Assembly (NCBI GenBank): GCA_002359315.1
Contig: DEMS01000032.1
Coordinates: forward strand, 2,438 to 66,437
Origin: Bacteroidetes bacterium UBA2664
GTDB lineage: Bacteria > Bacteroidota > Rhodothermia > Balneolales > Balneolaceae
Reading direction: 5' to 3'
Length of the DNA: 64,000 nt
Shown here: piece by piece, positions 22,146 through 64,000 of the stretch
Numbering within the stretch: the first letter of the stretch is position 1
Layout: each line of letters opens with the position of its first letter
The notes under the pieces: model-generated
The model's input: only the letters and a program-made list of their open reading frames with translations
The model's database searches: none
What the model was told of the DNA's origin: nothing
Made by a program: the position numbers and the translations under genes

Positions 22146-22146
22146 G

Positions 22147-22220
22147 TGGGCCCGGCAGGACTTGAACCTGCGACCAATCGATTATGAGTCGACTGCTCTA
22201 ACCAACTGAGCTACTGGTCC
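22147..22220 (-). tRNA. tRNA-Ile(CAT)-like copy at the left att junction, probably pseudo (acceptor mismatches)
   Basis: 74 nt, GGACCAGTAGCTCAG...CTCATAA...GGTTCAAGTCC...CGGGCCCA; 5' GGACCAG vs 3' CGGGCCC gives 2 mismatches. Confidence 0.75.
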
Positions 22221-22274
22221 AGTTACATTGTAAACTGCGATTTCCAACCTTATAAGCCAAAACTGAATCAAAAT

Positions 22275-22408
22275 TGTACATAGTATTGTACATAGCTCTA
22301 CTTTCTTTACCGATTGTACATAGTACATTGGCATTAGAATGAGGTTTTATGTTTTTAACTGTGTACAATTCTGTTCCTTTTCGTTCGCTTACATTGTGTA
22401 AGTAAATA
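22275..22408. promoter_or_regulatory. Left att arm: TGTACATAG repeats and CTTACA-N3-TGTAAG palindrome
   Basis: TGTACATAG at 22275, 22287, 22315; block 22361-22408 resembles 63829-63876. Confidence 0.7.
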
Positions 22409-22430
22409 TAGAAATAAAAAGCACCTTGGT

Positions 22431-22850
22431 TCAATCTAATTTTGAGTGTTTTTTGAGAAGCCGTAAAAGTGCCTCCGCAACTTTTATTTCAAGTTCCCTC
22501 GCTTCTGAAATTTCTTTCCGACTTTCACTAAAATCAAAATTCAGGAGAAGCGTTAAGGCGTTTTCCATTTTTTCTTTTTCAGAAATGGTCAAATCTGAAC
22601 TTGGCGATATGCTTCCATACATTTCTCCCTTTCCGGTAAGAAGCCAAGTCCCATCACATCCAGACCCAAGTACAATTTGCGCCAGTACTTCTGATCCCGG
22701 TTTTTTAATTCTTCCATATTTCAAATCAGTAATTAACGAATAATTGTTAATTCCACATTTCATAAGAAATTCTTTAGCCGAACCATATCTATTACTAATT
22801 AAAATAATTCTTTCGGCAATACTGTTTTTTTCGATTGTGCTTGATTGCAT
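22431..22850 (-). CDS. Phage-repressor-like XRE HTH protein
   Basis: IAERI...ITDLKYGRIKKPG.EVL.QI......WLLTGKGEM. Confidence 0.82.
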   Translation of the reverse strand: MQSSTIEKNSIAERIILISNRYGSAKEFLMKCGINNYSLITDLKYGRIKKPGSEVLAQIVLGSGCDGTWLLTGKGEMYGSISPSSDLTISEKEKMENALTLLLNFDFSESRKEISEARELEIKVAEALLRLLKKHSKLD

Positions 22851-22894
22851 TTAATCTGTAATTTCGTCTATTCGTTAATTAACTATAATTCATC

Positions 22895-22913
22895 TACTTA
22901 CATTGTGTAAGTA
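22895..22913. promoter_or_regulatory. Palindromic operator in the divergent repressor/early promoter
   Basis: TACTTACA-TTG-TGTAAGTA perfect 8-bp inverted repeat; core also at 22388 and 63856. Confidence 0.7.
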
Positions 22914-22926
22914 ACTAAATATAATT

Positions 22927-23205
22927 ATGTCTAACCAAATACCTAATACACATTCACAATTAAAATTTGCGTTGGGTATCAGTCAAAGAAGTTTAAAAGG
23001 TTTTGCTAACACTCTTACCAAGCCAGATGGTTCCATTGGAATTTCACATGCCGCTTTAATTCGGGTAGCGCAAGACACTGATAAAACCCCTTGGATACGT
23101 GAAGTAATTAATAGAACCATTAATCAAAGCAAAAGGAAGCACCCAAGCATTTGGGAAGAATTTTTGAAAGGAAATGACTCAGACAAAACAAAAACAAATA
23201 ATTAA
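22927..23205 (+). CDS. Small early protein, possible Cro-like DNA-binding protein
   Basis: First gene divergent from repressor; SLKGFA...GISHAALIRVA HTH-like pattern. Confidence 0.5.
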   Translation: MSNQIPNTHSQLKFALGISQRSLKGFANTLTKPDGSIGISHAALIRVAQDTDKTPWIREVINRTINQSKRKHPSIWEEFLKGNDSDKTKTNN

Positions 23206-23434
23206 TGCAATTGATGGCTTGTCTAATCAATTGGAGCTTATACGCTCACTGGTAAACGATACCCTCCTCCAAAACAAAGAATGGTTGAATTCAAAAGAAT
23301 TTGCGCTTTTAGCTAATGTCAAACCCAAATCAGTTTCAAATAATGTTGGAAAGGGTAAGTACAAAAAAACAATGAGAGATACCCACGGCAAGCATCTGAT
23401 ACATATTTCGGAGCTAAAGAGGCACCCATTATGA
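23174..23434 (+). CDS. Excisionase-like HTH protein
   Basis: EWLNSKEFALLANVKPKSVSN..GKG winged-HTH pattern. Confidence 0.6.
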   Translation: MTQTKQKQIINAIDGLSNQLELIRSLVNDTLLQNKEWLNSKEFALLANVKPKSVSNNVGKGKYKKTMRDTHGKHLIHISELKRHPL

Positions 23435-23619
23435 GTATGAAACCACTTACAAAAGATCTCAGAACTACCATTTGGGGACTTGCTGCATTCATAGAAAGCG
23501 AAGTAAATCTTAAAGACTTTTCCTTATTGATAAGGGATGCAAAGAACTCAGATATCAAACAAGTCGCAGTTATTCTGATTGAGGCTAAACAAAAACTTAA
23601 CCGAGTGATCTTGCAATAG
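23431..23619 (+). CDS. Hypothetical protein
   Basis: Translationally coupled within early operon. Confidence 0.5.
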   Translation: MSMKPLTKDLRTTIWGLAAFIESEVNLKDFSLLIRDAKNSDIKQVAVILIEAKQKLNRVILQ

Positions 23620-23630: not shown

Positions 23631-24395
23631 TTGACATTCTACGAAGCGATACCTCATGTGAGAGAAGCATCCAGAAATGATATTATCGAAATCATTTCTG
23701 AACGCATTCCTTTAAAAAAATCTGGGAGTTACTATAAAGCATGTTGTCCATTTCACTCTGAAAAGACAGCTTCATTTTATGTACATGAAGTAAAAGGAAC
23801 CTATAAATGCTACGGCTGTGAAGCATGGGGTGATGCGATTAGTTTTGTTGAGTTTTATGATGGGCTAACCTTCAATGAAGTCATTTATTTATTGGCCGAC
23901 CGGTATCACCTAACCATTTCAAAAAAAAGTAGGAAGAAATCCCAACAGGCTATAAAAAAAGAAGACGATATACTTCCAGGGTACTCCTCGGTAAAGTCTG
24001 AAATCCTCAAAACGAAGAAAGTTTATGTAGCATTTAAACAAGGCGACGCGCCATTCACACCTATTGTTTTCATAGATGGCAAGCTAAGCCTTGATGCAGC
24101 AAAACTTTTAAAAAAAAGAGCACAGAAAATCGTTTTTGTCGCTCAGGACACTTCTTGGGAGATACTTAAGCCTTCCTTTGAAGCCGCTTTAAAAGCGGAA
24201 CTGGAGGTATTCGCTATTCCAGATTATTCCAACGAATTCCAGGAAATAGACTGGGTGGACTATTGCTCCGCTCAGACTACCCAAAAAATTACAACCAAAG
24301 ATGTGATACAGCTTATTGCAGGAATTCCTGACAACATCACCCGGTCTGTGTACATCACTTATGCAACAGATAATTTCAAAGAACCCATCACATAA
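23631..24395 (+). CDS. CHC2 zinc-finger primase-like protein with degenerate TOPRIM
   Basis: CPFHSEKTASF...YKCYGC DnaG zinc-binding domain; short remainder lacking EG and DxD motifs. Confidence 0.8.
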   Translation: MTFYEAIPHVREASRNDIIEIISERIPLKKSGSYYKACCPFHSEKTASFYVHEVKGTYKCYGCEAWGDAISFVEFYDGLTFNEVIYLLADRYHLTISKKSRKKSQQAIKKEDDILPGYSSVKSEILKTKKVYVAFKQGDAPFTPIVFIDGKLSLDAAKLLKKRAQKIVFVAQDTSWEILKPSFEAALKAELEVFAIPDYSNEFQEIDWVDYCSAQTTQKITTKDVIQLIAGIPDNITRSVYITYATDNFKEPIT

Positions 24396-26710
24396 TGACA
24401 AACCCAATGTTCAACGCCGATTTTTGGCGTTGGTATCTGCGTAAAGAGTTTAAAGAATTTGCCCATTTAGCTGATACAACTATCCTTATTGAAAGAATTC
24501 GGAATGTTTTTTCCGAAAACAACCCCGATTCCTTACTCACCTTAAACCTCGACACAGAAATTTGCACTGATTCCGAGGGCAATGAATTCAATATGGTTGA
24601 ATTTATTGCAATAAAAGAGGACACCGAACGGCAGTACGCTGAAATGAACCTGGCCGTTGACTATGAGCGCTGGTTGGCCCAAAAATTTCAAGAAAACGCG
24701 GCCAAAGAATACGAACGGGACTTCGACAACTACCAATGGATACGTAAACGGGGTGGCGAAAAAGTGCCCGTAACCGATTTCGACCTGATCCTTGAATCCA
24801 TCATCGAAAAATGGAATCCGGAAAAGAAAGAATGGGAACGCACCTATGTTGGCCAGCTTCGCTACCTCCGTGGTGGCATTCCCATGTACAAGCCCTTCAA
24901 TTTTGAACCTGGCCAAACCCATAGCGTAGAAGAATTTTCCAAAAGCGTATGGAATAAAGACGTGCTCCAGGTAAAAAACATGAAAAATGAAGACATGCGA
25001 AGCTTTTGGCTGCATGTGAACATCGAATTTAAACCCCGTATAGTCCGGGAATTTGACCACTTTGGGATCATTTCTTTTGAAAAAACCCGGTATTTACTGG
25101 CTGGTAACGTGCTGGTAAGTTTCCCAAAGAAAGCATCTGGTCACATTAAACTGATCGCCCAACGTGACGGGGCTTTTCCTATTGGCGACAACAAGTTTTT
25201 AAAGCCCCCGGAGGACGCTATTCATCTTCCGCACTACGAATTAGGGCTTGCTAATTCGGACGGCTATTTCAAAAATGCGGAGGAAAGTCTGTACAACGAC
25301 CAGGAATTTTATAAAAAACTGGTGCATGTTGAACACCATTTCTGCGGTATGGTCGGTGGCAACTCGGAATTCAGGAACTGGGGAAAGATTATCATCGCCT
25401 ACGTGTTCTCTTTTGTGTTTTTCGACGAAATCTACGCCCTCCACAAACACATCATCTTCCTCTACTTGTATGGAGAGGGAAACGTGGGTAAAGGAGAAAT
25501 GGCCAAGCTTATTCAGGATTTTTTTGGAATAAATCACCTCGATAGTTTGAACACACCACCGGCCCGATCGGTGGACGAGGCGCTGGAGCAAAAATCCCAT
25601 ATCCCCCAATGGATAGATGAGCACGTTCCTCAAGTTCCTGGGAAAAAGGCCAAGATTGAAGACCAGATCTGGAACTCCTGGTTTGAACTCAAGCCACGTC
25701 CTACCAACATCAAAAAAGGCAACAAATGGGGCAAGGAGCATAAAGTAGTGCGAACCATGCCGCTTTTTTGTAGCAACTTTTTGCCGGCCACCGATCACCT
25801 GCTTAGCCGCTCACTAATCATTCATTACAGCAAAAAGACGCGCGGCCCAGAAGATCATGTAAAAGAGCTGCTCAACGAGAGGGTTACCCTTCAGCGGCTT
25901 ATGCTTTCTTTTCTAAAAAACTACCACCTGATTAATCGAAAGGACTTTATCAAGGACATGGAACGCATCCGGCTTAAGCTCAAAGATGCTGTCAAAACCG
26001 AACTGGGTGATAAAATGAAAGATGTGGTGCTTCAAGACCGGCAAATTAACCAGTTTGCCTCGTTGGTTACGGTTTCTTACTGGCTCAATCCTGATTACCG
26101 AAACCTGATATCGGGTTCACTGGACGAGCTGGAAGAGATCAAAGACAAAGCCATGTACGATGATTATTACCGCAATTTCACCAAGGAGCGTAATGAGGAA
26201 CGGCTTCTCTCGGTTACCGGGGAAGATCTTTTCCTATTTGCTCGCGATGAAGTCGTTAAAACAGCCATCCGGTACTCTTCCCAAGATCCACTTACCGAAT
26301 TTATTGAAACCATCGGTACACTTATCCAATCGTTGAAGGTTACCGTACATCATTTTAACTGGACCAAGGACGGTACACTCAAAATTTGGGCTAAGGCGAT
26401 CTGGGACATCTATGAATACGAAAAAAGAGGCACCGATGGCATGGTACGCCGTGATATCGTGGACGAGAAGCTTCGGGATTTAAGCGATTTGACTCCGGAA
26501 GGCGAACTTAAGGTGGTTAACTGGACGATTGTTGATAGTTACAGCAACCTAAAGACCGATACCATTCGTCAGCGGGGCTATTACATCCCAAATGCGGTAG
26601 AAAACGAGCTGTTTCGCAACGCCTTTAACTGGGACAAATTTAAGCCCACCGGAAGCCAGCCCTGGACAGAAAACACCGAACTGTTTAATGAAGAAATAGC
26701 TTCGGCGTGA
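24395..26710 (+). CDS. P-loop replicative helicase-like protein (771 aa)
   Basis: LYLYGEGNVGKG Walker A, WIDE Walker B, FCSN, SRS; coupled to the primase-like gene. Confidence 0.7.
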   Translation: MTNPMFNADFWRWYLRKEFKEFAHLADTTILIERIRNVFSENNPDSLLTLNLDTEICTDSEGNEFNMVEFIAIKEDTERQYAEMNLAVDYERWLAQKFQENAAKEYERDFDNYQWIRKRGGEKVPVTDFDLILESIIEKWNPEKKEWERTYVGQLRYLRGGIPMYKPFNFEPGQTHSVEEFSKSVWNKDVLQVKNMKNEDMRSFWLHVNIEFKPRIVREFDHFGIISFEKTRYLLAGNVLVSFPKKASGHIKLIAQRDGAFPIGDNKFLKPPEDAIHLPHYELGLANSDGYFKNAEESLYNDQEFYKKLVHVEHHFCGMVGGNSEFRNWGKIIIAYVFSFVFFDEIYALHKHIIFLYLYGEGNVGKGEMAKLIQDFFGINHLDSLNTPPARSVDEALEQKSHIPQWIDEHVPQVPGKKAKIEDQIWNSWFELKPRPTNIKKGNKWGKEHKVVRTMPLFCSNFLPATDHLLSRSLIIHYSKKTRGPEDHVKELLNERVTLQRLMLSFLKNYHLINRKDFIKDMERIRLKLKDAVKTELGDKMKDVVLQDRQINQFASLVTVSYWLNPDYRNLISGSLDELEEIKDKAMYDDYYRNFTKERNEERLLSVTGEDLFLFARDEVVKTAIRYSSQDPLTEFIETIGTLIQSLKVTVHHFNWTKDGTLKIWAKAIWDIYEYEKRGTDGMVRRDIVDEKLRDLSDLTPEGELKVVNWTIVDSYSNLKTDTIRQRGYYIPNAVENELFRNAFNWDKFKPTGSQPWTENTELFNEEIASA

Positions 26711-27478: not shown

Positions 27479-28213
27479 GTGTTCGAACCAAACAGAACAC
27501 AGATGGCAGAATCAATAGATCCAGTTACCGAGTCTTCTACTGAGCCCGATAAAGGTGGAGCTACCAAAGCTACACGTGGGCGTCCACCTGCTGAATTTTA
27601 TTTGCAGGAATATGGGCAAAGTTACCGACCACAAGTTGATGACAACTATTATCAGCATCGTTGTCTAATGCTCGAAAGAGAACTGAGTGATGTGCAAAAT
27701 AAGAACCATCAGTTAAGTGATGAGCTTTTTAAAACAAGGAAAGAGCTATCCGAGGATAGAACTGAATTGTTGATTAAACATCAGAATGAAGTAGCTCAAC
27801 TCAAAGAAGATTTCAGAGAGAGATTAGATTCCCACAAAGAAGTTCAGCACAAAAGAGAGCGGGATCTTGTAAAAGAGATTGACAGCTTAGAGAAGGAACT
27901 CTATAAAAAAGAGATAGAGTATAAAAATGGAGAGTTATCGTTAAAAGGAGTAGTTAAAGATTTTGCTGATGCTTTAGTTCCCATGATCGTTGGGAATAAT
28001 AGACCAGACCTCTCTGGGCTTATTCAAAAACAAATACCAGAGACGGCCCCACAAAATCCAAATGCCTCACAAATAACTCAGGAAAAAACAGTTCAGAGTA
28101 ATACTACTTTTGAACATCATCCTGAATCCACACTTAGAAAAGAGCCTGATGAGGAACTAAGCACTTTACTCGAAAAGGAATTAAACAAACAGTCAGTTGA
28201 GGAGGAAGTGTGA
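27479..28213 (+). CDS. Coiled-coil hypothetical protein
   Basis: Long charged heptad region; start uncertain (may be 27503). Confidence 0.6.
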   Translation: MFEPNRTQMAESIDPVTESSTEPDKGGATKATRGRPPAEFYLQEYGQSYRPQVDDNYYQHRCLMLERELSDVQNKNHQLSDELFKTRKELSEDRTELLIKHQNEVAQLKEDFRERLDSHKEVQHKRERDLVKEIDSLEKELYKKEIEYKNGELSLKGVVKDFADALVPMIVGNNRPDLSGLIQKQIPETAPQNPNASQITQEKTVQSNTTFEHHPESTLRKEPDEELSTLLEKELNKQSVEEEV

Positions 28214-28623
28214 GCACATCTCCCAGAGAAGAGCTGTTAAAATTTGCCCTCGGCTACATGGTGAGCAAAAACCATAGCGTGGAGCGGTACATCAAATACG
28301 CAAAACTTATACGGTCGCAAGTTGAACTGATTCAGAAAATTGAAAACCGGCCTATTGCGGTTAGCGACTGGATACAAATGGCTATTGAATTAGGTCGGCA
28401 GGCCTTGGTGAGAGAAATCGGAGCGAAACGAATTGCAGAAAGCATATATCCCCTTGTGGATGGATCAGGGCAATTGAAACCATACGTCTCATTTCCGGCT
28501 GGGCCTGCCACTAATTTACTGCTGGGATTCACCGGTACCTACAACTCCCTGACCAATCGGGAGAGACGATTTTTAGTGCAGATCATCAGTGAGCTGCAAA
28601 ACCTTCACCGCAAAAACCACTGA
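28210..28623 (+). CDS. Hypothetical protein
   Basis: Overlapping start/stop within operon. Confidence 0.6.
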   Translation: MSTSPREELLKFALGYMVSKNHSVERYIKYAKLIRSQVELIQKIENRPIAVSDWIQMAIELGRQALVREIGAKRIAESIYPLVDGSGQLKPYVSFPAGPATNLLLGFTGTYNSLTNRERRFLVQIISELQNLHRKNH

Positions 28624-28626: not shown

Positions 28627-28848
28627 ATGCCCAAGGTAGAAACTAAGTCTATATCCCAAGTTCGTAAAGATAATTACTCCCAAGCCGTTGGTGAAGGCAT
28701 TACGGCAATTACCCTGAACGGGGAATTTGTAGGTGTTTTAATCACCTGTGGAAATTCATCACAGGAATTGGCATCCCTTCGCCACAAAAGACTGTTAGAC
28801 AATCCGGTTCACACCATTACCGAACTCACCAAGCAGGTGCTTCAGTAA
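28627..28848 (+). CDS. Small protein, weak Phd/YefM-like pattern
   Basis: SISQVRKD...AITLNGEFVGVLI. Confidence 0.4.
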   Translation: MPKVETKSISQVRKDNYSQAVGEGITAITLNGEFVGVLITCGNSSQELASLRHKRLLDNPVHTITELTKQVLQ

Positions 28849-29861
28849 TGCAGAGCGGTTACGTAAACATATTACCAGATACCCAGCAGCAATACACCAG
28901 AGCACGGGCTGTGGATGCTTCTTTGGGAGCATCCACAGTACCTCTTTCTACTCGACGCCAGGCGTACCCCGGTGTGGAAGGCGTGCTTTCGGCAGCCAGT
29001 AGGCTGGTTACCAAATATACTGGCGACGAGCGCATTCGCTCACTTGCCCTCAAAATTACAAGCACGATTCGGCGACACCGGCTTACAGGACAACCCGACC
29101 TGCGAAACATTGACGCTATTGCCTCTGCCATATACAAGTGGATGGTGCGCAACGTGAATTATGTGCGCGATCCGTGGGATGTCGAGCGTATTCAGTCGCC
29201 CTTTGTCACCATAACCCAACGGGCTGGTGACTGCGACGATCATGCTATTTTAGGTGCAGCCTTATTACAAAGTCTCGGTATTCAAACGGGCTTTCGCATT
29301 GTCTCGCGAACCGGACGCCACTTTGACCATATTTACGCGGTGTACCAATCACCTACCGGTTGGAAATCATTCGATACCACCGTACTGAAATATCCCGGTT
29401 ACGTATTTGACGAGCGGCTCATTAAAAAATCCAGGCACGTCACCAACCAGATGCCTGAAGGCTTGGGGCTTGATCCCATTACGCTACTCACCACGGCTAC
29501 CACAATGGCCAGTACCGGGATGACGCTTAAAAATACCTTGTCCAATATATTTGGAGCCAAAGATAAAGATGAGCGTCAAATGCGCGGAGCCCTGCGAGAC
29601 TATCTCATGCAGCGGGGCGTGCAATCCGAAGTGATCAGTCTTTCCCAAAAAGACAATGCCACCCTTCAGCGCTACGCACAGATTATAGATGAACTTGGAG
29701 CCCCGGCGGTTCAGCAACTGAATCGCTACGGGCAACTTTCCCCGGTTTGGGTTACTCAACAACAAGTAGCAAATAAAAACAAAAAAATGGGGCTCTATGC
29801 CGGTCTTGCCATTGGAACACTGGTTCTGATTGGTGGCGGGTATATGCTTCTAAACAAATAG
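28848..29861 (+). CDS. Transglutaminase-like (papain-fold) protein with C-terminal TM anchor, putative maturation protease
   Basis: YVRDP, GDCDD, HIY, WKSFD give a Cys-His-Asp triad; internal EGLG; C-terminal TM. Confidence 0.8.
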   Translation: MQSGYVNILPDTQQQYTRARAVDASLGASTVPLSTRRQAYPGVEGVLSAASRLVTKYTGDERIRSLALKITSTIRRHRLTGQPDLRNIDAIASAIYKWMVRNVNYVRDPWDVERIQSPFVTITQRAGDCDDHAILGAALLQSLGIQTGFRIVSRTGRHFDHIYAVYQSPTGWKSFDTTVLKYPGYVFDERLIKKSRHVTNQMPEGLGLDPITLLTTATTMASTGMTLKNTLSNIFGAKDKDERQMRGALRDYLMQRGVQSEVISLSQKDNATLQRYAQIIDELGAPAVQQLNRYGQLSPVWVTQQQVANKNKKMGLYAGLAIGTLVLIGGGYMLLNK

Positions 29862-30287: not shown

Positions 30288-30300
30288 GCAGGCCTGTCCC

Positions 30301-30624: not shown

Positions 30625-30626
30625 GT

Positions 30627-30896: not shown

Positions 30897-30897
30897 A

Positions 30898-48746: not shown

Positions 48747-48750
48747 TAGG

Positions 48751-53602: not shown

Positions 53603-53674
53603 AATACTGTGGTTTATGTATTAATCCTGCAAAGAGAAGAATATGTAAATATGGCTTTGCAGGAATAGTTTTTG

Positions 53675-54874: not shown

Positions 54875-54896
54875 TTTTTTGTTGATTTAAAATCTG

Positions 54897-57800
54897 TTAT
54901 TGAGTTTTGTTGAGGTAGTATTCTAATTGGAAATGGCTATTCAGATAATTGCCAAATGCATTCCATGAGTCGATTTCAATGCGAATGGCATCTCTGATGC
55001 TTTGAAAGAAAGCCACATAGTCTATGGCTCCTTCTTCATAAGAGGTGATGGCACCTTGCTGTTGTTCTTTGGCAAGAGGGAGTGCTTCCTGTCGATAATA
55101 TTCCCACGAGCGCAACCATTTCTGATAATTTTCCCGGATACTGTTATAGGTACTGTTGAATTCTCTCTGAGCCTGGTCTAGGTTTTGACGGGCAATATTT
55201 CGTTCAATCCGGGCGGATTGAGTTTTCCCGGCCTTAGACCAGAAGAATACCGGAAGTCTGATCCCGATCTCATAGGAATTAAAGCCACCTTGCCCAGCTA
55301 TTTCCTGCCAGCCATAACTGGCTTGAAAACTTGGTAAAAACTGACTTCTTTGTTCTTTAATCGATGCTTCCGCCACGTCAATTTTTTGTTGATATAAAGC
55401 AATCAGCGGGTGGCCGAATGTAGAATCTGCCTGTAAAGGCTGTACAAGCTGTTCGGCTGAAACACTTTGAACCGTGTATAACGAGTCCCCCTCAAACCAT
55501 TTGTTAAAAGCTCGAACAGCAGCCCCATAATCGCGGAAGGCTTGTTCTGTTTGTATGGTAATTTGGTTGGCCTGATTCATGATATTAAGATATCCCAGCC
55601 GGGAAATTTCCTCCGTTTCAAATTTTATTTCCGCAGCCCTAGCAATATCCCTGAATTGCTGGTTCAGGCGATTATAGATCTCATATTGTTGTTTAGCGAT
55701 GAAAACCGTTGACCAGTCCTGCTTTACCCGGAGCCTGAGCTCTAACTCAGACAATTCATAGTTCAGCCTGGCAAGTTCTGTTTGTTCATTCCGATGATTT
55801 AGCCTTGGCAAAACACCGAACAGATCAAACTGCTGCTGAATGCCAAATTTTGTAGTAACACCGTCCGAACCGTTGCCGAACTCTTCACCTCCGGTAAAGA
55901 GGTTCGTATCGCCAAAGTCCCAGGCTGTTTTTTGAAGAGCCTTCCTGTTGTCAATTCCAAGCCTGGCTGCCTCAAGAGAAGGATAATTTGCTATCGCTTT
56001 TTGAACGGCCTGATCCAGCGCAATTTGCGGGAGGGTATCATTCAGCACCTGTTCCTGAGCCTGTACAGAATCGGGAGAAAGCAGCAGGCTTCCACCAATA
56101 ATCAGCAACACAACGGAGGCCATAGAAGTACTACCCGGCTTGTGTTTTCTCATTTTACGCTTTTCTATGTACGCATAAAGGATGGGCAGCACGACCAACG
56201 TAAGCAGCGTGGCGCTAATCAACCCGCCGATTACAACAGTGGCCAGCGGCCGCTGTACTTCAGCACCGGCTGTTGTTGAAAACGCCATCGGAAGAAAACC
56301 CATAATAGCCGCCGTAGCGGTCAATAAAATGGGGCGAAGTCGCTCTTTGGTACCTGTCAAAATTCGTTCTTGTAAATCCATAACACCTTCGATTTTTAAT
56401 GAATTAAACCGGCTGACGAGCACAAGGCCGTTTAGCACAGCCACTCCGAACAATACAATGAAACCAACTCCGGCAGAAATACTGAAGTCCATTCCACGTA
56501 AAGCCAGGAAGAAGACACCTCCAATAGAAGCCAGGGGAATAGCCAGATAGATCATTACCGACTGTGAGAACGATTTTAGTGCGAAGTACAGCAGCACAAA
56601 GATAAGAAACAGGGCTATAGGCACTACAATAGCCAATCGGTTCTTGGCCCGTTGCAGATTCTCAAATTCACCCCCATAAGTAATGTAATAACCCGGCGGC
56701 AGATTCAATTCGGCCTCCAGTTTTTCTTGAATATCCAAAACCACCGATTCCACATCCCGCCCGCGTGTATTCACACCAACATAGCTCCTGCGAAAGGTGT
56801 TATCTCGCGAGATCTGCATAGGCCCCGGCTGATAACTGATATCCGCCACTTCTTTAACCGGCACCTGTGCACCGTTTTCCAGATCTACATACAGATTGCG
56901 AATATCCTCAATGCCAGTACGATGAGCTTCATCAAAGCGGATCACAAGATCAAATCGTCTTTCGCCTTCGAATACAACTCCAGCAACACCTCCGGCAAAA
57001 GCTGAACTTACGTATTGATTGAGCTTCGTGATATCCAGTCCATATTGAGCCACTTTTTGCCGGTCATACCTAACGGTCATTTGAGGTAGTCCAGCCGTAC
57101 GTTCGGGACTCACATCACCCACCCCTGGAATAGTTTGAATAATTTGAGCCATTTCCTGAACTTTCTCCGCCAATACATCTATGTCGTCTCCGTATAGCTT
57201 TACGGCGATATCTTCTCGTACACCTTCCAAAAGTTCGTTAAACCTAAGCTCTACCGGCTGGGTAAAAACGAAATTCACACCTATCATGGTCTGATCGAGT
57301 TTACTCTTTATTTTTTCTATCAGCTCCTCTTTAGATTCGGCAGAGATCCAGTTTTCTTTATTCTTGTCCAGAATGATGTACATGTCGGCAATGTCCATGG
57401 GCATAGGATCAGTGGGAATATCAGCTACCCCAATTCGAGCTGTTACTGTTTCTATCTCTGGAAATTCTTCCAGCAGTGTCGTCTCAATTTTCTTGGATTG
57501 ATCGATCGCCTCTGATAATCCACTGCCCGGACGGAATAGGGCTTGCATGGCAATATCTCCCTCATCCAGTTGTGGAATAAATTCACCTCCCATTCTCGAA
57601 AAGGTGAACATCGCACCGCCAAAAAGCAGTATGGCAGCTACAATCACAACAGGTTTTCGCTTTAACGACCATTGGATAACCGGATCGTAGCCCTTCTGAA
57701 TAAAGGATATAAGTTTGTTGCTGACCCGATCGAGGCCTCGCTCGAACCGGGCAAACCATCCCTTTCTATTTTGTGAGGGTTTCATAAACAGTGCCGAGAC

Positions 57801-59297
57801 CATTGGTACATAGGTAAGACATAAAATAATAGCACCTAATACAGCAAACCCAAAGGTGAATGCCATAGGACGGAACATCTTACCTTCTACTCCTTCCAGA
57901 AACAGGATAGGGGCAAATACAATAAGGATGATCAACTGTCCAAAGAAGGCAGCATTCATCATGGTGCTGCTTGCCTTGTAGGCAATTTCATTCATCTGTG
58001 TTTTACTAAAAGCACGTTTTCCGGATTTCACCCTTTTTTCAATTTCATGAACCGTGCCTTCCACTATAATTACGGCTCCATCAACAATAATACCGAAGTC
58101 GATGGCTCCAAGGCTCATTAGATTGGCCCACACCCCGGTGGCCTTCATCATTATAAAAGCAAAAAGAAGGGAAAGCGGAATAAGTGAGGCGGTTATTAAC
58201 CCTCCGCGTAAACTTCCTAAGAGTATTACCAAAACGAAAACTACAATCAATGCACCTTCCACCAGGTTTGTGGTAACTGTACTGGTGGTTCGTTCAATAA
58301 GAGCACTTCGATCAAGGAAAGGCTCAATCTTTAAACCTTCAGGCAGTGACTTTTGAATTTCAGCAATTCTATCCTGAACGTTTTGAATGGTTGCATTCGG
58401 GTTTGAGCCTTTCAGCATCATAATAATGCCACCTACTGCTTCCTCACCATCCTGAGTAAAAGCTCCATAACGAATTTGAGTTCCAAAGGTAACCTCTTCT
58501 GCTACATCTCTGATTAGGATGGGTAGTCCGTTTTCGTTCTTGACTACAATGTTTTCTATATCTTCAAGGCTGCGTATCAATCCTTCGCCACGAATAAAAT
58601 TAGCCATCTTGTTTTTCTCGATATAGGCCCCGCCGGTATTTACATTATTCCTGGACATTGCCTCATATACTTCTGAAATACTAACTCCCATTGCATTTAG
58701 TTTATCAGGACTTATGGCTACTTCATATTGTTTGATGCCTCCACCGAAGGAGTTGACCTCTATAACCCCCTCCAGGAGCACCATTTGGCGCTTAATAATC
58801 CAATCTTGTATTGTGCGCAATTCATCAGGCGTATATTCATCTTCATATGCAGGGTCCACCTGAATGGAGTACTCGTAAATTTGGCCTAATCCACTTGAAA
58901 TGGGACCCATGGATGGACTTCCAAAATTCTCGGGGATCGTTTCGCCCAGTTCACTGAGTTTTTCCTGTACCAGTTGCCGGGGTAAATAGGTACCCATATC
59001 ATCTTCGAAAACGATGGTAACCACGGATAACCCGAATCGGGATACCGAACGGATTTCAGTTACTCCTGGCAGGTTACCCATGGCAAGCTCCACGGGATAC
59101 GTTACAAATTGTTCAATGTCTTCGGTAGATAGATTTTCCGATACCGTAATCACCTGTACCTGATTATTTGTAATATCAGGAACCGAACCTAGATTAATGG
59201 TCATCATAGAATATAATCCTACTCCTATTAGAGACAGGATAAACAAGCCGATGATAAACTTGTTCTTAATCGAAAAGGCAATAATTTTGTTGATCAT
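54897..59297 (-). CDS. czcA: CzcA/CusA heavy-metal RND pump fused to a TolC-like domain
   Basis: PDITNNQVQ, GAIDFGIIVD, RLRPILLT, then ~400-aa outer-membrane-factor extension; start placed at MINKII. Confidence 0.93.
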   Translation of the reverse strand: MINKIIAFSIKNKFIIGLFILSLIGVGLYSMMTINLGSVPDITNNQVQVITVSENLSTEDIEQFVTYPVELAMGNLPGVTEIRSVSRFGLSVVTIVFEDDMGTYLPRQLVQEKLSELGETIPENFGSPSMGPISSGLGQIYEYSIQVDPAYEDEYTPDELRTIQDWIIKRQMVLLEGVIEVNSFGGGIKQYEVAISPDKLNAMGVSISEVYEAMSRNNVNTGGAYIEKNKMANFIRGEGLIRSLEDIENIVVKNENGLPILIRDVAEEVTFGTQIRYGAFTQDGEEAVGGIIMMLKGSNPNATIQNVQDRIAEIQKSLPEGLKIEPFLDRSALIERTTSTVTTNLVEGALIVVFVLVILLGSLRGGLITASLIPLSLLFAFIMMKATGVWANLMSLGAIDFGIIVDGAVIIVEGTVHEIEKRVKSGKRAFSKTQMNEIAYKASSTMMNAAFFGQLIILIVFAPILFLEGVEGKMFRPMAFTFGFAVLGAIILCLTYVPMVSALFMKPSQNRKGWFARFERGLDRVSNKLISFIQKGYDPVIQWSLKRKPVVIVAAILLFGGAMFTFSRMGGEFIPQLDEGDIAMQALFRPGSGLSEAIDQSKKIETTLLEEFPEIETVTARIGVADIPTDPMPMDIADMYIILDKNKENWISAESKEELIEKIKSKLDQTMIGVNFVFTQPVELRFNELLEGVREDIAVKLYGDDIDVLAEKVQEMAQIIQTIPGVGDVSPERTAGLPQMTVRYDRQKVAQYGLDITKLNQYVSSAFAGGVAGVVFEGERRFDLVIRFDEAHRTGIEDIRNLYVDLENGAQVPVKEVADISYQPGPMQISRDNTFRRSYVGVNTRGRDVESVVLDIQEKLEAELNLPPGYYITYGGEFENLQRAKNRLAIVVPIALFLIFVLLYFALKSFSQSVMIYLAIPLASIGGVFFLALRGMDFSISAGVGFIVLFGVAVLNGLVLVSRFNSLKIEGVMDLQERILTGTKERLRPILLTATAAIMGFLPMAFSTTAGAEVQRPLATVVIGGLISATLLTLVVLPILYAYIEKRKMRKHKPGSTSMASVVLLIIGGSLLLSPDSVQAQEQVLNDTLPQIALDQAVQKAIANYPSLEAARLGIDNRKALQKTAWDFGDTNLFTGGEEFGNGSDGVTTKFGIQQQFDLFGVLPRLNHRNEQTELARLNYELSELELRLRVKQDWSTVFIAKQQYEIYNRLNQQFRDIARAAEIKFETEEISRLGYLNIMNQANQITIQTEQAFRDYGAAVRAFNKWFEGDSLYTVQSVSAEQLVQPLQADSTFGHPLIALYQQKIDVAEASIKEQRSQFLPSFQASYGWQEIAGQGGFNSYEIGIRLPVFFWSKAGKTQSARIERNIARQNLDQAQREFNSTYNSIRENYQKWLRSWEYYRQEALPLAKEQQQGAITSYEEGAIDYVAFFQSIRDAIRIEIDSWNAFGNYLNSHFQLEYYLNKTQ

Positions 59298-59447
59298 GTT
59301 GACAGCTGTGTGAATATAGATTAGTCTTTGATGCCGATCTTTTTCAAATACTTTGGCTGAAACCACAGAATGACCAGAGGTTAAACAGCTCGTTGAAAAA
59401 AATGGATGGGGCAGAATTTGTTTCTGCTAAATAGAGAAAGGCAGGTA

Positions 59448-59879
59448 TTAAATCAGAAGTTGCGTGACTTTAATAACCTTAAGAGTTATTGGAGGGGATA
59501 AATTGTCTTTTAGATATACAGGTAACGTAATTTGAACAACAGGGTCACCATAGTTCCCAAACAAATAAGGAATGATTGGAAACATAAACTTACAGTCCGG
59601 GCACTCATTTCTTAACAGTGCATCATCATAGCAGCACTGATTTTGAAATTGATGGTGCTTTTTTTCAACTGTTTTGTACTCAGAATTAGTCTCTTCTGAA
59701 TGTTGTAATACAATTTCAAAACAGCCTTTATCTAAGTTATAGGTAGAGGAAACATCATGAGTACTTGCTAATACAGAAACACTTAAGGGTAGAAAAAAGA
59801 AAAACCCTGCCCATGAAAAAAGAAAAGATGCGATTGTCGCAACATTCAGATTACGTAAGTATGCTCTGAAAAAATACAA
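59448..59879 (-). CDS. Hypothetical His/Cys-containing protein upstream of czcA (paralog of 61952..62392)
   Basis: Shared LP.S/K...GCFE.V..H, CC.DD, PP...T.LLI pattern. Confidence 0.55.
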   Translation of the reverse strand: MYFFRAYLRNLNVATIASFLFSWAGFFFFLPLSVSVLASTHDVSSTYNLDKGCFEIVLQHSEETNSEYKTVEKKHHQFQNQCCYDDALLRNECPDCKFMFPIIPYLFGNYGDPVVQITLPVYLKDNLSPPITLKVIKVTQLLI

Positions 59880-59956
59880 TTCTTTAAGGGGAAATATTGT
59901 GATTAAGTAGAATGCTGATGATAAGGATTATTTGTAATGCAACTCAATTGCAAAGA

Positions 59957-60370
59957 TCAGGAAGAACAGGAAGGACAACTCCCGGTTATCACAAAATTGC
60001 CGTTGGATGGAGTAAAATTTTCGGGCAGATCGTAGTTAGGAATGCCAAGATGTGGAAAACAAAATGTTTGTTCACAGGAGAAACAATAAAAATGAACGTG
60101 CACATCATCCGGGTACGAACAGGTACAGTTTTCAGAACAAAGGGCATATTTAGTTATCCCACTTGCATCGTTTATTTGATGCACCAAACCATGTTCTAAG
60201 AATGTTTTTAAGGTACGATAAAGCGTTGTCCGATCTGCATGGGTAAACTTTTCTTCAAGATCTGATAGGCTTATTACCGACTTAGTTTCAGCCATGAAAA
60301 GAAGAATCCGCATGCGCATAGCGGTCGGTTGTATATCTCTGCTCTGCAATCTTTTTTCATGAATAGTCAT
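59957..60370 (-). CDS. Fur-family regulator
   Basis: TLYRTLK.F, HVHFYC..C, CPSC. Confidence 0.9.
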   Translation of the reverse strand: MTIHEKRLQSRDIQPTAMRMRILLFMAETKSVISLSDLEEKFTHADRTTLYRTLKTFLEHGLVHQINDASGITKYALCSENCTCSYPDDVHVHFYCFSCEQTFCFPHLGIPNYDLPENFTPSNGNFVITGSCPSCSS

Positions 60371-60574
60371 CTTTATTGAAATAATATTCGTTGATTAATG
60401 TGTACAAGTAATATTTATACAAAGGGCGAATCGCCGGTATAAATCATATCAATTCTATGATAAACTACCACTAAAATCTTTGAAACTCATATTTGGTAAT
60501 TTTGACATAAATATATGGGTTCGGGGCAGTTATCTTTCGTTTCCAAAATTCTAAATAAGTGAAAGATTGGCAAG

Positions 60575-61500
60575 CTATAACACATTGACCATTTCCTGAT
60601 TTACTGATTCGGATTGCTTTTTAATACTCCGAAATCCCAACAAAAAAAGAAGAGGCAAAATTGCAGAGGGGATCTGTTGAGGAATAAATGACCAGCTTAG
60701 GAGAAAGAGCAGAAAAATAGCTGCATATAGTACCAAAAACACTTTATAATTTTCTGAAAGTCGTTTTCTGCCCATAAAAGAAAATATAAAGGCCGACAAA
60801 GCCGGGGCAGACCACACTATATTCCAATTCCATTTGGTTGAGGGATACGAAGAAAAAAACCACAAAAAAATGATCAACACTCCAATCAACCCAATTATCC
60901 CGAATAACAGACGGTCGAACCAAAACCAGAATGTGTGATTAGTTCTATAGAAAAACCCGGCAAGCAGGCTTGTAATCAGCAAAAACCAAAAGCTTAAAGT
61001 GGGGCTTACTCTCGCAGGACTAATGACAGACCGTTTCTGAGGAGCATAAAATCTCTGCTCTGAAACCAAGGCAAGACTTGTATCAGCTTGCTGTATCCGA
61101 GCGTGTGAAAATCCCTCTTTTAACAGGTCGGGTAAGAACAGCGTTTCCGACTCGGGTGGGTTGCGGTCGGCGGGAGTACCCAACAGCAAGTTAATCCCAA
61201 ATTTTACCCAGGAAACGGATTTCACGTAGGGATTAATAAACTGCCGAAAACTATTCTTTGCCGAATTTTGCGGCTCTTGAAAATGGATTGAATCCCCAGC
61301 TACTGCCTTGACAGCCTCATAGATCCGGGTGGTACAGTTATCATAGAAGAACTCATAGGAATAATATCGATTTTCGGGCCGGGCGTTATTCTCCAAAAAA
61401 TCATACAAGCGTTTGGTTTGATTCTCTGTTAGATTTAATCGCTGTTCAGTAATAATGCGGCCGTCATTCAAATATGCTTTTTTTGCATTCTCAAACTTGT
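60575..61500 (-). pseudogene. C-terminal fragment of Lnb/DUF4105-like membrane protein
   Basis: EQRLNL, Y.YEFFYDNCTTR, FLPD; N-terminus missing, frame runs into the czcA fragment. Confidence 0.7.
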
Positions 61501-61830
61501 TCCCAGCTGCCGGGGCAGGTAGGTTCCCATGTTTTCCTCAAAAACAATGGTTACAATGGAAAGCCCAAGTTTGGACACCGATCGCATCTCCACCACACCG
61601 GGGAGGTTGGCCATAGCCAGTTCCACCGGAAATGTGATGAATTGTTCGACTTCCTGCGTAGCCAAATTTGGTGAAGTGGTGATGACACGAACCTGATTGT
61701 TGGTAATATCCGGCACGGCATCAATCGAAACTTGTGTAAGTGAATAGGTACCCCACGCAGCTAAAGCGATCGTCAATAGACCAATGATCAGCTTATTACG
61801 CACAGAGTAGCGAATGATTTTATTAATCAT
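61468..61830 (-). pseudogene. Truncated second czcA (first ~110 aa only)
   Basis: DAVPDITNNQV...TYLPRQL then unrelated sequence. Confidence 0.85.
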
Positions 61831-61951
61831 ATCTGAGTGATATAGAAATTGTGAGTTTGATAGATGAAATAAATTAAATCAGGCGTAGGTTTCCCTGAGA
61901 TCAATTTTTTATATAAGAGAGGGACAGATAAAGCTCTGCCAAAAAGGGTAT

Positions 61952-62392
61952 TTAAATGAGGAGGCGGGTAATTTGGAGCGATTGATGCATTACCGGAGGT
62001 GGTAAAGGATGCTCCTGAAGAGTAACAGTACTCTGTTTTTGTTTAGAAAGGAGATTGAATTCGAATCCTTCATTTTCGTAGCTCAGCGGAAGATCAAAAT
62101 CGGTATCCTGCTTTTTATAAGTCAGCGCCAGATCATCAAAACAGCATGAATTGTGAAAAGAATGGGCATCGTTCTCCTCATCCATCAGGTGAAATCCATC
62201 GGCATCTTCATGGTGATCAACCACCAATTCAAAGCACCCTTCATCTGCATTGAACACGGAGTAGATGGAATGGGAATCTGCAAAACCCAGAATTTTAACC
62301 GGAAGCACAATTGCCATCAGCAGCCATGAAAGGATAAACCCTCCTGTGGAGAATACGTAAAATACAGAGATGTATTTGCGGATAAAATTCAT
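61952..62392 (-). CDS. Hypothetical His-rich protein upstream of truncated czcA
   Basis: Paralog of 59448..59879. Confidence 0.55.
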   Translation of the reverse strand: MNFIRKYISVFYVFSTGGFILSWLLMAIVLPVKILGFADSHSIYSVFNADEGCFELVVDHHEDADGFHLMDEENDAHSFHNSCCFDDLALTYKKQDTDFDLPLSYENEGFEFNLLSKQKQSTVTLQEHPLPPPVMHQSLQITRLLI

Positions 62393-62530
62393 TGAGAGAA
62401 ATAATATCTATTATTTATCATTCAATCAATGATATATATAAAATGTGAAAATAAAATCAATCTAAAAATTTCCAACTTTTTTACAATAAGCGAATTGGAA
62501 TTATTTGAATCTAACCCCCGTACTTAAGAA

Positions 62531-63706
62531 TCACCGTAAGTTTGTCATCTTCATTTTTAATTTTCTTACAGTAAGATGAGTATATTTTTCCGTCACTTTT
62601 TGGCTTGAATGTCCAGCCATATAGCTTGCTTCAGCTGTATGAAATCCTTTCTCAATCCAAGTAGTAACTGCTTGGTGTCTCATTCCATGTAAAGTACGAG
62701 AGGTAGGAATACCTGCTTCTTTGCAGTAACGCTTAAATTCCCGATACACTCTCATACCACGAACCGGTTGGCCTTTTGTATTTCCACCGGTATAAATAAA
62801 CACATAATCACTGGGGATTATCTTACCACGAATCTTTAAGTACCCATTCAGTTCATTTTTTAATTCATTAATGATGGGGATCAGCCGTTCTTTTCGGCCT
62901 TTGGTGGGTGGTAGGGAAATGTAGCTTAATTCTCCATCTTCATAGATCAGGTTTTCACCTTTCAGTCCGGAGTAGGAAAGTTCAGGATCATAAGCCGCTT
63001 CATGTTTTCGGAGTCCACCATAGAAGTACAATGCCACAATAGGTTTGAACCAATGCTGAACCAATTTAGGGTCAAATTCGGGCAAATCTTTCTTTCTGGA
63101 TAGCTCTTCATCGAATTTCTTAAAAAGAATTCCAAGTTCTTCCTCAGAAATCATTTTAGGCCGGGTATTTTCTCTAATTCGGGGTAGATCCTGTTTCAGC
63201 GCAGGAAAGTAGTCCTTCTCCACAATGTTCTTTTTCAGCAAAAACTTCCACCAAGACCGGAAATGTCGGAAGTAGTAATGCCTTGTAGCTGAAGTAATGC
63301 CCTTTTTGAAGATCACATTCTCAAAATGGTAGCTTAAAACATTGGTTGGGTGTACATCCGATAACTCATTTAATTCCACAAAATGATCTAAAGCTCGCTG
63401 GTAGGCTCCAATGGTTGCCGGAGAGAGGTGGTTTTTTGATTTGTAGAAAAGCTCGATAGATTCGCTCACCGTGTTGCTGTCAGTGGTGTCATCACTGGTG
63501 TTCCTTTGCAAAACCTTCTTAGGATTGAATCCTTTTGAAAAGGGATTGATCTTGCCTAACGAATCCAGTTTTTCGAGTTCGGTTACCATTTTCTGAGCAA
63601 CATCCTTGTGTCGGGTGCCCAATGATTTTCGAACATTCTTTTTACCCAGTTCTTCAGAGTAAAAATTTACATAGTAGTATTTACCGCGCTTGATAAGAAA
63701 TGCCAT
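62531..63706 (-). CDS. int: Tyrosine recombinase (integrase)
   Basis: GLRK.E, TKG, HGMRH, GHSS, KYTH catalytic set; N-terminal arm-binding-like SLGT. Confidence 0.95.
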   Translation of the reverse strand: MAFLIKRGKYYYVNFYSEELGKKNVRKSLGTRHKDVAQKMVTELEKLDSLGKINPFSKGFNPKKVLQRNTSDDTTDSNTVSESIELFYKSKNHLSPATIGAYQRALDHFVELNELSDVHPTNVLSYHFENVIFKKGITSATRHYYFRHFRSWWKFLLKKNIVEKDYFPALKQDLPRIRENTRPKMISEEELGILFKKFDEELSRKKDLPEFDPKLVQHWFKPIVALYFYGGLRKHEAAYDPELSYSGLKGENLIYEDGELSYISLPPTKGRKERLIPIINELKNELNGYLKIRGKIIPSDYVFIYTGGNTKGQPVRGMRVYREFKRYCKEAGIPTSRTLHGMRHQAVTTWIEKGFHTAEASYMAGHSSQKVTEKYTHLTVRKLKMKMTNLR

Positions 63707-63782
63707 AGTAGGTGCCTTCTGAATTAAAGTTCGGTAAGCGAATTCTTAATTCAGTAGCCTTTGCGAGCGCCCATCCCAAAAT

Positions 63783-63876
63783 TGTACATAGTAGTGTACA
63801 TAGTAGTTGGGAAAGTAGGGGAATGAAAGTGTACACTTTCGTTCCTTTGCGTTCGCTTACTTAGTGTAAGTAAATA
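63783..63876. promoter_or_regulatory. Right att arm: TGTACATAG repeats and operator-like palindrome
   Basis: TGTACATAG at 63783 and 63795; CTTACTTAGTGTAAG at 63856-63870. Confidence 0.7.
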
Positions 63877-63900
63877 GGCTTTTTTTTGGCTTAGAAGGGA

Positions 63901-63928
63901 ATTGAGAGGGTTTTTACACCCTCTCAAT
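63901..63928 (-). terminator. Hairpin immediately 3' of the restored tRNA
   Basis: ATTGAGAGGGT-N6-ACCCTCTCAAT perfect 11-bp stem; weak U-tract. Confidence 0.5.
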
Positions 63929-63933
63929 AATTG

Positions 63934-64000
63934 TGGGCCCGGCAGGACTTGAACCTGCGACCAATCGATTATGAGTCGACTGCTCTAACCAACTGAGCTA
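63934..64000 (-). tRNA. tRNA-Ile(CAT, lysidine type), 5' end beyond window; integration site
   Basis: TAGCTCAGTTGGTTAGAGCAGTCGACTCATAATCGATTGGTCGCAGGTTCAAGTCCTGCCGGGCCCA; Ile2 rather than Met inferred from likeness to ileX-type sequences. Confidence 0.85.

Follow-up and report, generated by a model that had tools for sequence, protein, structure and literature searches.

Background

SSIP-1, the closest described relative of the element discussed here, is reported to be a tailless, icosahedral, membrane-containing phage (PMC6356626, PMC6260650). These papers and two reviews (PMC5332951, PMC4958249) give T=49, a circular genome of 44 kb and no classification, and the reviews group it with viruses that have two single-barrel major capsid proteins (MCPs). 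Here we describe an element at positions 22146-64000 of a 64,000-nucleotide stretch (the window) of contig DEMS01000032.1, from the Balneolaceae genome Bacteroidetes bacterium UBA2664, a marine bacterium. It is likely an integrated SSIP-1-related phage of an unclassified family of tailless temperate phages.

Where does such a virus belong? In 2025 ICTV, the virus taxonomy committee, split Singelaviria from Varidnaviria because single jelly-roll (SJR) and double jelly-roll (DJR) capsids are held to have separate origins, as set out in PMC12714852 and PMC8812541. Both realms are described as using FtsK-type motors (PMC8812541, PMC5894146), and Sulfolobus polyhedral virus 1 (SPV1), with one SJR MCP, has been proposed in PMC8812541 as the pre-duplication state. 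Our literature search returned no paper on SSIP-1-like proviruses; its coverage did not extend to subscription journals, the proposal files of ICTV or supplements such as those of PMC5894146 and PMC5512222, where related elements may be described.

A gene set collinear with SSIP-1

The virion-related part of the element is a run of 24 co-oriented open reading frames (ORFs) at 27479-47643, listed below with their SSIP-1 counterparts (gp or ORF numbers).

27479-28623, plus strand: two ORFs corresponding to SSIP-1 ORF33 in split form (for the ORF at 28210, family hidden Markov model (HMM) against ORF33, E 2e-14; the ORF at 27479 matches weakly, E 0.013)
28848-29861, plus strand: tail-anchored transglutaminase-fold protein (PF01841, E 5e-8), gp34 homolog (40%, 2e-32), candidate maturation protease
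29865-32281, plus strand: six small proteins, mostly tail-anchored, including ORF35 and ORF36 homologs and a peptidoglycan-binding protein
32283-33536, plus strand: RadA/Sms-like ATPase of the RecA superfamily, gp40 homolog (35%, 3e-28)
33540-40769, plus strand: 2,409-aa polyvalent DarB-like protein with RelA/SpoT-like, adenine methylase and SNF2 helicase domains (DarB-like PHROG, 9e-171)
40798-41301, plus strand: 167-aa gp44 homolog (1.4e-9; HMM 3e-16), likely an inner membrane or DNA-side protein
41392-42003, plus strand: 203-aa single jelly-roll protein, gp45/gp46 homolog, likely major capsid protein
42012-42055, plus strand: terminator-like hairpin and T run between the two capsid genes
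42088-42864, plus strand: 258-aa double jelly-roll protein, gp47 homolog, with sequence-homologous halves
42867-43280, plus strand: 137-aa gp48 homolog (family HMM against gp48, 1.9e-8), candidate penton
43282-45290, plus strand: two variable proteins of 192 and 467 aa, candidate vertex or spike proteins
45291-45845, plus strand: tail-anchored lytic transglycosylase (PF01464, 4e-13), SSIP-1 ORF54 homolog (38%, 3e-26)
45852-46488, plus strand: two small proteins with hydrophobic tails
46493-47643, plus strand: candidate endolysin (by position and HxxxxAxD-type motif) and two holin-like membrane proteins

Of the 57 SSIP-1 genes, 12 have homologs in the element according to BLASTP and family HMMs, and their order is conserved: ORF33, gp34, ORF35, ORF36, gp40, gp43 (C-terminus only), gp44 through gp48, and ORF54. 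Eight of the 13 SSIP-1 proteins annotated as structural have homologs in the element. Matches to gp45 (4e-19), gp46 (7e-10), gp47 (HMM, 7e-30) and the last 100 residues of gp43 (1.9e-7) are significant, and SSIP-1, present as two records of one genome, is the sole match for both capsid proteins among 50,697 phage records. The two genomes are similar in size (43.8 kb for SSIP-1, 41.8 kb for the element), their hosts belong to the same broad group, and both encode a transglutaminase-fold protein, a RadA-like ATPase, a tail-anchored transglycosylase and a giant protein with a common C-terminal domain. In contrast, SSIP-1 carries gp45 and gp46 where the element has one SJR gene, and the integrase, repressor, replication, spike and lysis genes of the element have no SSIP-1 match. 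The element also differs from SSIP-1 in the DarB-like middle of its giant protein, its metal cargo and its integration in a tRNA gene, and identity between homologs is 21-40%. Anchored by one isolated phage, the lineage is not wholly new, and the element is a variant of an orphan virus type. We consider it probable that the element is an integrated phage related to SSIP-1, likely making tailless icosahedral particles with an inner membrane and using the SJR protein as its predicted MCP.

The original prediction, made from sequence alone, had proposed a tailless, membrane-containing temperate virus of a poorly described non-tailed lineage. The predicted jelly rolls, the lack of conjugation or tail hallmarks and the synteny with SSIP-1 all support the virus type; the lineage is likewise supported by that synteny, except that the isolated SSIP-1 anchors it. 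Two checks suggested at that time, structure prediction for a capsid fold and a search for synteny, returned an SJR (203 aa) and a DJR (258 aa) protein and syntenic elements in related genomes. The ~20-kb co-oriented operon rich in small membrane proteins stands as 24 co-oriented ORFs, of which 9 pass the hydrophobic-segment rule and 9 have a C-terminal anchor score of at least 1.5 at under 350 aa; 7.2 kb of it is one DarB-like methylase-helicase gene, which had been overlooked, as had ~15 kb of cargo for metal resistance. For the candidate endolysin (46493) and the holin-like genes no family match is significant, and a PDB search with the endolysin gave nothing significant either; they are kept as candidates by position and motif.

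As first noted, no terminase, portal, HK97 capsid, relaxase or type IV secretion system (T4SS) is matched in Pfam (54 ORFs), PHROGs (49) or NCBIfam (23). Tail and head PHROG matches are weak coiled-coil similarities (E 0.003-0.008) or transglycosylase and peptidoglycan-binding domains; weak profile matches to head scaffolding, tape measure and xenorhabdolysin were dismissed as coiled-coil noise. Neither PF03237 nor PF02534 was found in the genome, which is 81% complete; the control for each matched in 5 of 14. In these scans the element thus shows neither the terminase, portal and HK97 capsid that define Caudoviricetes nor the relaxase, coupling protein and T4SS of an integrative conjugative element (ICE).

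Capsid proteins

The AlphaFold model of the 258-aa protein (28-row alignment) consists of two tandem beta-barrels at a pLDDT of 90. It aligns with the MCP of STIV over 230 residues (Z 10.4, root-mean-square deviation (rmsd) 4.7), as a double jelly roll would, and also matches PM2 P2 (Z 8.5, Foldseek 1.6e-5) and PRD1 P3 (Z 7.7). Its two halves can be aligned with each other by profile (hhalign probability 91.4%, E 9e-7, 98 columns, 17% identity); to our knowledge, the barrels of viral DJR proteins usually lack such half-to-half sequence similarity. The 203-aa protein is modelled as one barrel (pLDDT 85, 23-row alignment), with its best matches in a 135-residue HHIV-2 chain (Z 8.1), satellite panicum mosaic virus (8.0) and SPV1 (7.9), followed by HCIV-1 (6.7) and VP17 (6.3). 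SPV1 is also its best high-probability viral Foldseek match (E 2.4e-3). In BFVD a 211-aa entry stands far above the others (E 9e-12, TM 0.77) and, from its fitting length and identity, is presumably SSIP-1 gp46.

PDB sequence searches with both capsid alignments gave nothing significant, and Pfam and PHROG scans revealed no family for either protein. The same scans gave no family for the 192-aa and 467-aa proteins, whose position is taken by other genes in distant relatives, and the 137-aa family has no significant PDB sequence match. Neither the 203-aa jelly roll (hhalign probability ~2%) nor the 137-aa protein has a detectable profile relation to the DJR halves. Because no such relation was detected, descent of the DJR from the 203-aa SJR is not demonstrated.

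Which of the two proteins is the hexon? A hairpin with a T-rich tail separates the last SJR gene from the DJR gene in 10 of the 10 gaps folded, at -21 to -28 kcal/mol despite divergent gap sequence, and the SSIP-1 gp46/47 gap has one of -39 kcal/mol in the same place. In a relative with two SJR genes (L024), the hairpin stands after the second paralog and none lies between the paralogs. This conserved terminator-like hairpin, together with the two single-barrel MCPs of the reviews, which fits gp45 and gp46, leads us to favour the SJR protein as the hexon and likely MCP.

Several observations pull the other way. The cellular double jelly rolls PHM and GH172 equal the viral matches of the 258-aa model (Z 10.0-10.5), and a Z of ~8 for the 203-aa model is near the level of common beta-sandwiches. 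The gap hairpins were judged by eye without a shuffle control, the T tail is weak in the gaps of two relatives (G324 and L026), and the SSIP-1 gp45/46 gap also has a weak stem and T run. An operon-wide terminator scan gave 35 sites against 26.6 +/- 5.3 in shuffles, little above chance, and the major-protein assignment in SSIP-1 is taken from the reviews.

Could the roles be reversed, with the 258-aa protein as a trimeric MCP of the PM2 and STIV kind and the 203-aa protein as a penton or minor component of the same virus? The full-length structural match to the STIV, PM2 and PRD1 MCPs invites this reading, as do the 97% identity of the 258-aa protein to that of close relatives and the minor role of the SJR partner in DJR viruses as described in PMC5894146. 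We nevertheless regard it as improbable: the 258-aa gene lies downstream of the conserved hairpin in all ten gaps, it is the SJR gene that duplicates in SSIP-1 and L024, the reviews assign SSIP-1 two single-barrel MCPs, and rmsd values of 4.7-4.9 with Z scores of 8.5-10.4 are modest.

A six-frame HMM scan finds one SJR copy in the element, and no SSIP-1-style pair of paralogous single-barrel capsid genes is present there. One copy is likewise found in 11 of 11 fetched relatives and in 24 of 25 loci, and two in L024; the 11 relatives and 25 loci may overlap in genomes, and their counts are not additive. In a midpoint-rooted tree of 40 rows selected from 158 sequences, the gp45 and gp46 lineages group together (100/98), and both L024 copies fall in the clade of the window protein (100/99). 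Approximately unbiased (AU) tests, with groups named after a first tree, reject either L024 copy joining the gp46 group (p 6e-5 and 0.001) and the L024 copies as sisters (p 0.005). From these sequences the SJR gene has duplicated at least twice, and the single copy of the window could be either ancestral or the result of a loss. The L024 pair (L024:9992-11333) belongs to a second provirus in a Gracilimonas genome, and its duplication is independent of that of gp45 and gp46.

ATPase, giant protein and maturation enzyme

The ATPase best matches RadA/Sms (PDB, 1.6e-7; NCBIfam TIGR00416, 4e-13), and its Pox_A32 match (E 5.5e-4) falls under the cut-off. Its homolog gp40 is annotated as a virion protein of SSIP-1, and a role in packaging may be suggested. 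The neighbouring 2,409-aa protein combines RelA/SpoT-like, methylase and SNF2 domains with a C-terminal domain in common with the virion protein gp43. Three relatives (G324, G158, G031) encode the ATPase as a fusion with another middle part and the same C-terminal domain; therefore, the ATPase-giant protein pair resembles a packaged cassette in which the cargo can be exchanged. The giant protein opens with its RelA/SpoT-like domain (window 33540-34160), possibly a packaged alarmone synthetase-like effector.

Polyvalent DarB-like proteins, as described in PMC5512222, likewise unite a methylase, an SNF2 helicase and a RelA/SpoT-like domain, are encoded among late genes and are packaged in the P1 virion. 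Unlike them, the protein of the element belongs to a predicted tailless virus, carries a family-specific C-terminal domain and has counterparts fused to the ATPase in three relatives. The word 'Salisaeta' does not occur in the main text of PMC5512222.

Two short motifs recur among these proteins. Five of the nine tail-anchored proteins start with SG[YF][IV] (0.13 expected), often with G[LM]G next. The ATPase, the giant protein and the 167-aa protein together contain five copies of RxNP against 0.33 expected, and their SSIP-1 counterparts four against 0.36. The Cys-His-Asp triad of the transglutaminase-fold protein is intact in all 13 homologs aligned. We hypothesize a maturation code in which the anchored proteins would be cut near their N-terminal tag by the membrane-anchored Cys-His-Asp enzyme; the adenovirus protease provides a comparable maturation scheme. 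Against this idea, the p-values of the tags are overstated because the motifs were picked by eye (post hoc), the tag letters vary in distant relatives (SGFLSD, FLG[ED]), and the giant protein of one relative (G057) has no RxNP.

Relation to established virus groups

An earlier label of PRD1/PM2/Sphaerolipoviridae type had been applied to the element. The jelly rolls and membrane proteins agree with it, but the label fits poorly because the ATPase is RadA/Sms-like rather than FtsK/A32-like, and the capsid genes comprise one SJR and one DJR. Helvetiavirae of the realm Singelaviria (Sphaerolipoviridae, Simuloviridae, Matshushitaviridae) have an SJR shell protein, as predicted for the element, an internal membrane, as in SSIP-1, and, according to PMC5332951, tRNA-associated proviruses. 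Their two SJR MCPs and FtsK-like ATPase, as given in PMC8812541, contrast with the one SJR, extra DJR and RadA-like ATPase found here, and their MCPs match the SJR of the element at a Z of just 6-8, level with unrelated sandwiches.

Prokaryotic DJR viruses of Varidnaviria (STIV, PM2, PRD1) share with the element a tandem jelly roll over 200-230 residues, many small membrane proteins and a transglycosylase. The element is unlike them in that its DJR is likely minor and has sequence-homologous halves, and it has no FtsK-HerA/A32 ATPase (also absent in the Odin and FLiP groups); at under 20 kb according to PMC8812541, their genomes are about half its size. SPV1 (Portogloboviridae) resembles the element in its single SJR MCP, but has an archaeal host and no ATPase, whereas the element has a bacterial host and an ATPase and thus falls outside Portogloboviridae. 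The element would work like a tailless membrane phage but fails the defining tests of both Helvetiavirae and classical DJR viruses.

Why might this matter? The SSIP-1-like family bears side by side SJR and DJR proteins, the hallmark folds of two realms, and the DJR duplication is still visible in its sequence. Tentatively, SSIP-1-like viruses may form a high-rank lineage of their own, its proviruses common in Balneolaceae, with an SJR hexon, a DJR duplicated in tandem within the lineage, a RadA-type packaging motor and its own cysteine maturation protease. If so, the lineage would sit across the Singelaviria/Varidnaviria split, and the passage from one capsid gene to two that has been proposed for Helvetiavirae would have been repeated in it at least twice, independently. 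SSIP-1 has been an isolated case since 2012; with proviruses present in cultured strains, direct experiments would be feasible. Common resources overlook the family or label it wrongly, and it also connects resistance to mercury and other metals with a tailless phage.

Proposed life cycle and alternatives

How might such a provirus live? The repressor would keep it silent. On induction, integrase and excisionase would recombine the tRNA cores, yielding a 41.8-kb circle to be copied by the element's own primase and helicase. The late operon would then supply many tail-anchored proteins marking a patch of host membrane, and the 167-aa protein would join DNA, vesicle and shell. Encoded upstream of the terminator, the SJR protein would be made in excess and assemble into hexamers; the DJR protein, the 137-aa protein and the spikes would be read-through products serving as lower-copy shell or vertex parts. 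The membrane-anchored Cys-His-Asp enzyme might process the anchored proteins near their common N-terminal tag. Like gp40 and gp43 of SSIP-1, the RadA-like ATPase and the DarB-like giant protein would be incorporated into the particle; the ATPase could help DNA loading or release, and the giant protein could protect incoming DNA against restriction. On entry, the anchored transglycosylase would open the cell wall, and the metal-resistance cargo would pay for residence.

The evidence on activity suits, in part, a grounded provirus or capsid-bearing genomic island that forms no infectious particles and is kept mainly for its mercury and zinc/cadmium resistance. Unitig depth inside the element (21/87/100) shows no excess over the host flank (23/82/102). 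No attP join occurs among the assembled contigs, a join whose 69-bp core exceeds what these contigs resolve; these contigs, assembled from one sample, are unable to separate attL/attR from attP/attB. In six of the nine relatives at this site, 77-109 kb lies between the att copies, far beyond the SSIP-1 genome; these relatives share mer/czc cargo, and copies of such a size may not be packageable. The genome also carries a sister element that keeps a repressor, the start of a primase and an integrase of 93% identity but shows no capsid gene in the assembly. Some cargo genes within the element are broken.

Set against these points, all viral ORFs are full length relative to those of relatives, and the ratio of nonsynonymous to synonymous divergence (dN/dS) is 0.03-0.17 in each case where dS could be measured (3-5 relatives for each of 10 genes); by these ratios the viral genes are under purifying selection. 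The 41.8 kb lies within SSIP-1 size, the att cores are 100% identical, and complete relatives of 35-46 kb at tRNA genes bracket the 43.8 kb of SSIP-1. For the 203-aa gene (41392-42003), dS is saturated in comparisons with close relatives that differ by a dS of 0.4-0.7 in the neighbouring genes, and the spike gene (43887-45290) is saturated in two of three relatives with close neighbours, a sign of allele exchange of surface proteins that would be expected among active viruses. A grounded provirus is accordingly, in our judgement, slightly more improbable than the reversed capsid roles. An ICE or tailed prophage with unrecognised genes, whose jelly rolls would be cellular-type carbohydrate enzymes, could draw on the occurrence of DarB-like proteins in conjugative elements and tailed phages as described in PMC5512222, on the tie of PHM and GH172 with the viral matches and on the mostly Uroviricota Atlas clusters of the 203-aa protein, but is largely refuted and very improbable given that no relaxase, T4SS, terminase, portal or HK97 family was matched in the element, that its 81%-complete genome has no PF03237 or PF02534, and that its proteins are homologous in sequence to, and syntenic with, the virion proteins of a phage without a tail.

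Integration site, early genes, cargo and distribution

Outside the late operon, the element comprises the following features.

22146-22214, minus strand: att core, left copy, the 3' 69 nt of a tRNA(CAT) with imperfect acceptor stem
22269-22408, no strand: TGTACA repeats as candidate arm sites for the integrase, with an operator-like palindrome, of repeat families recurring at the right end
22431-22850, minus strand: CI-like repressor (PHROG 4/8/3037, E 2.5e-6)
22896-22912, no strand: candidate operator, palindrome ACTTAC-N5-GTAAGT, between repressor and early genes
22927-23619, plus strand: three small early genes, including an excisionase-like ORF at 23174-23434 (PHROG 9834, E 1.4e-3)
23631-24395, plus strand: CHC2 (DnaG-type) zinc-finger primase-like protein (PF01807, 5e-30)
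24395-26710, plus strand: 771-aa P-loop protein (Walker A at residue 360), likely replicative helicase
47743-50388, plus strand: cargo, ArsR regulator, MerTP and MerA (NCBIfam MerTP and MerA above cut-off)
50408-62392, minus strand: cargo, two cation diffusion facilitator (CDF) exporters, Cus/Czc resistance-nodulation-division (RND) system, Fur-like protein, fragmented symporter and RND pieces
62531-63706, minus strand: tyrosine integrase
63777-63876, no strand: right-end copies of the arm-like and operator-like repeats (repeat analysis)
63933-64000, minus strand: right att core, within an intact tRNA(CAT) ending at 64008

The exact att repeats, integrase, repressor switch and replication module of the original prediction all held up. 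Direct repeats of 69 bp (22146-22214 and 63933-64001; 68 bp of the right copy lie inside the window, the 69th in the genome) bound the element and predict a circle of 41,787 bp. The core is the 3' part of a minus-strand tRNA(CAT), called as Met by ARAGORN and possibly, we presume, of Ile2 identity. By inspection, the left copy has two acceptor-stem mismatches; the right copy (63933-64008, extending past the window) has a fully paired stem and is an intact gene. The integrase (Pfam 1.2e-16, PHROG 8e-42, also found in the NCBIfam scan) adjoins this intact tRNA, the usual layout for an integrated element, and with the direct repeats and repressor switch it gives the arrangement of a temperate, tRNA-integrating element. 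The repressor is transcribed divergently from the small early genes, and TGTACA repeats with the palindrome occur at both element ends and ahead of the early genes. The DnaG-type zinc finger and the 771-aa protein, whose Atlas neighbours are DUF927 at 0.92 and which has no Pfam match, make up the replication module. A 39,091-bp unitig covers 23696-62786 in all three runs of one source sample; a physical link thus joins the primase to the capsid operon, the cargo and the integrase end. GC content is ~0.39 in the host flank and climbs to 0.51-0.52 within the late operon. Homologs from named organisms put the host in the Balneolaceae.

Five ~118-bp units (window 16301-16712 and 22023-22141), each opening with the tRNA 3' end, carry a palindrome like GAAGCACTGCTTC; an AbiEii toxin-antitoxin pair and lipoprotein-like genes sit between copies 4 and 5, and the array looks like integration scars or cassettes at tRNA(CAT). 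Directly past the right att (G000:C37, beyond window 64008), the sister element begins with a repressor, small genes and a primase, the last interrupted at the contig end by a short sequence common to other contig ends, perhaps an insertion sequence. A further contig (G000:C42:1-66927) has another intact tRNA copy with the 93%-identical integrase and ~65 kb of metal, metabolic and restriction cargo. No capsid gene was found in the sister element or C42 in this assembly; the sister element is possibly a tandem, capsid-less derivative. In the element itself, the broken cargo (51323-52302, 60575-61830) consists of a bile-acid/arsenite-type symporter in three ORFs and truncated RND and Lnb genes, the viral genes being whole.

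The 203-aa family comprises 105 clusters at 50% identity and occurs in 9 of 61 genomes of the bacterial family and in two genomes of other families in the order; besides the window's own, 400 genomes of the phylum gave one doubtful match. A match in G333 (E 2.9e-4, 832-aa frame) was set aside as likely chance. The 258-aa protein is found in 7 of 60 relatives, its own genome included. Most Atlas clusters of the 203-aa protein are labelled Uroviricota, and in IMG/VR no relative turned up for either capsid protein with the patterns used. A plasmid search gave no match, and a transglutaminase scan gave two loci with no capsid-family match save one weak match to the 137-aa family.

At other tRNA genes, complete relatives with tRNA repeats measure 35.4, 36.3 and 37.8 kb. 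Spans at the same tRNA are 39.5, 46.0, 46.4, 76.9, 79.8, 86.0, 86.2, 96.5 and 108.9 kb (9 of 10 genomes, the tenth being fragmented). The large ones (G218:C1, G190:C14, G138:C7, G447-G449) hold mer/czc and restriction-modification cargo between the lysis genes and the integrase. In another family of the order, a whole contig (G057:C25:1-37773) is one complete element with a 49-bp terminal tRNA repeat; it was not counted as a free circle because an assembler break at a repeat looks alike. In the parts examined of three metagenome contigs of 34-39 kb (L028, L030, L034), neither integrase nor att core was seen. Identical-looking stretches of the element have been binned to metagenome-assembled genomes of Verrucomicrobiota and Saprospiraceae (L022, L023) and are likely mis-binned Balneolaceae-type virus contigs. 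Proviruses are present in the cultured strains Gracilimonas tropica DSM 19535, G. amylolytica LA399 and Rhodohalobacter halophilus JZ3C29.

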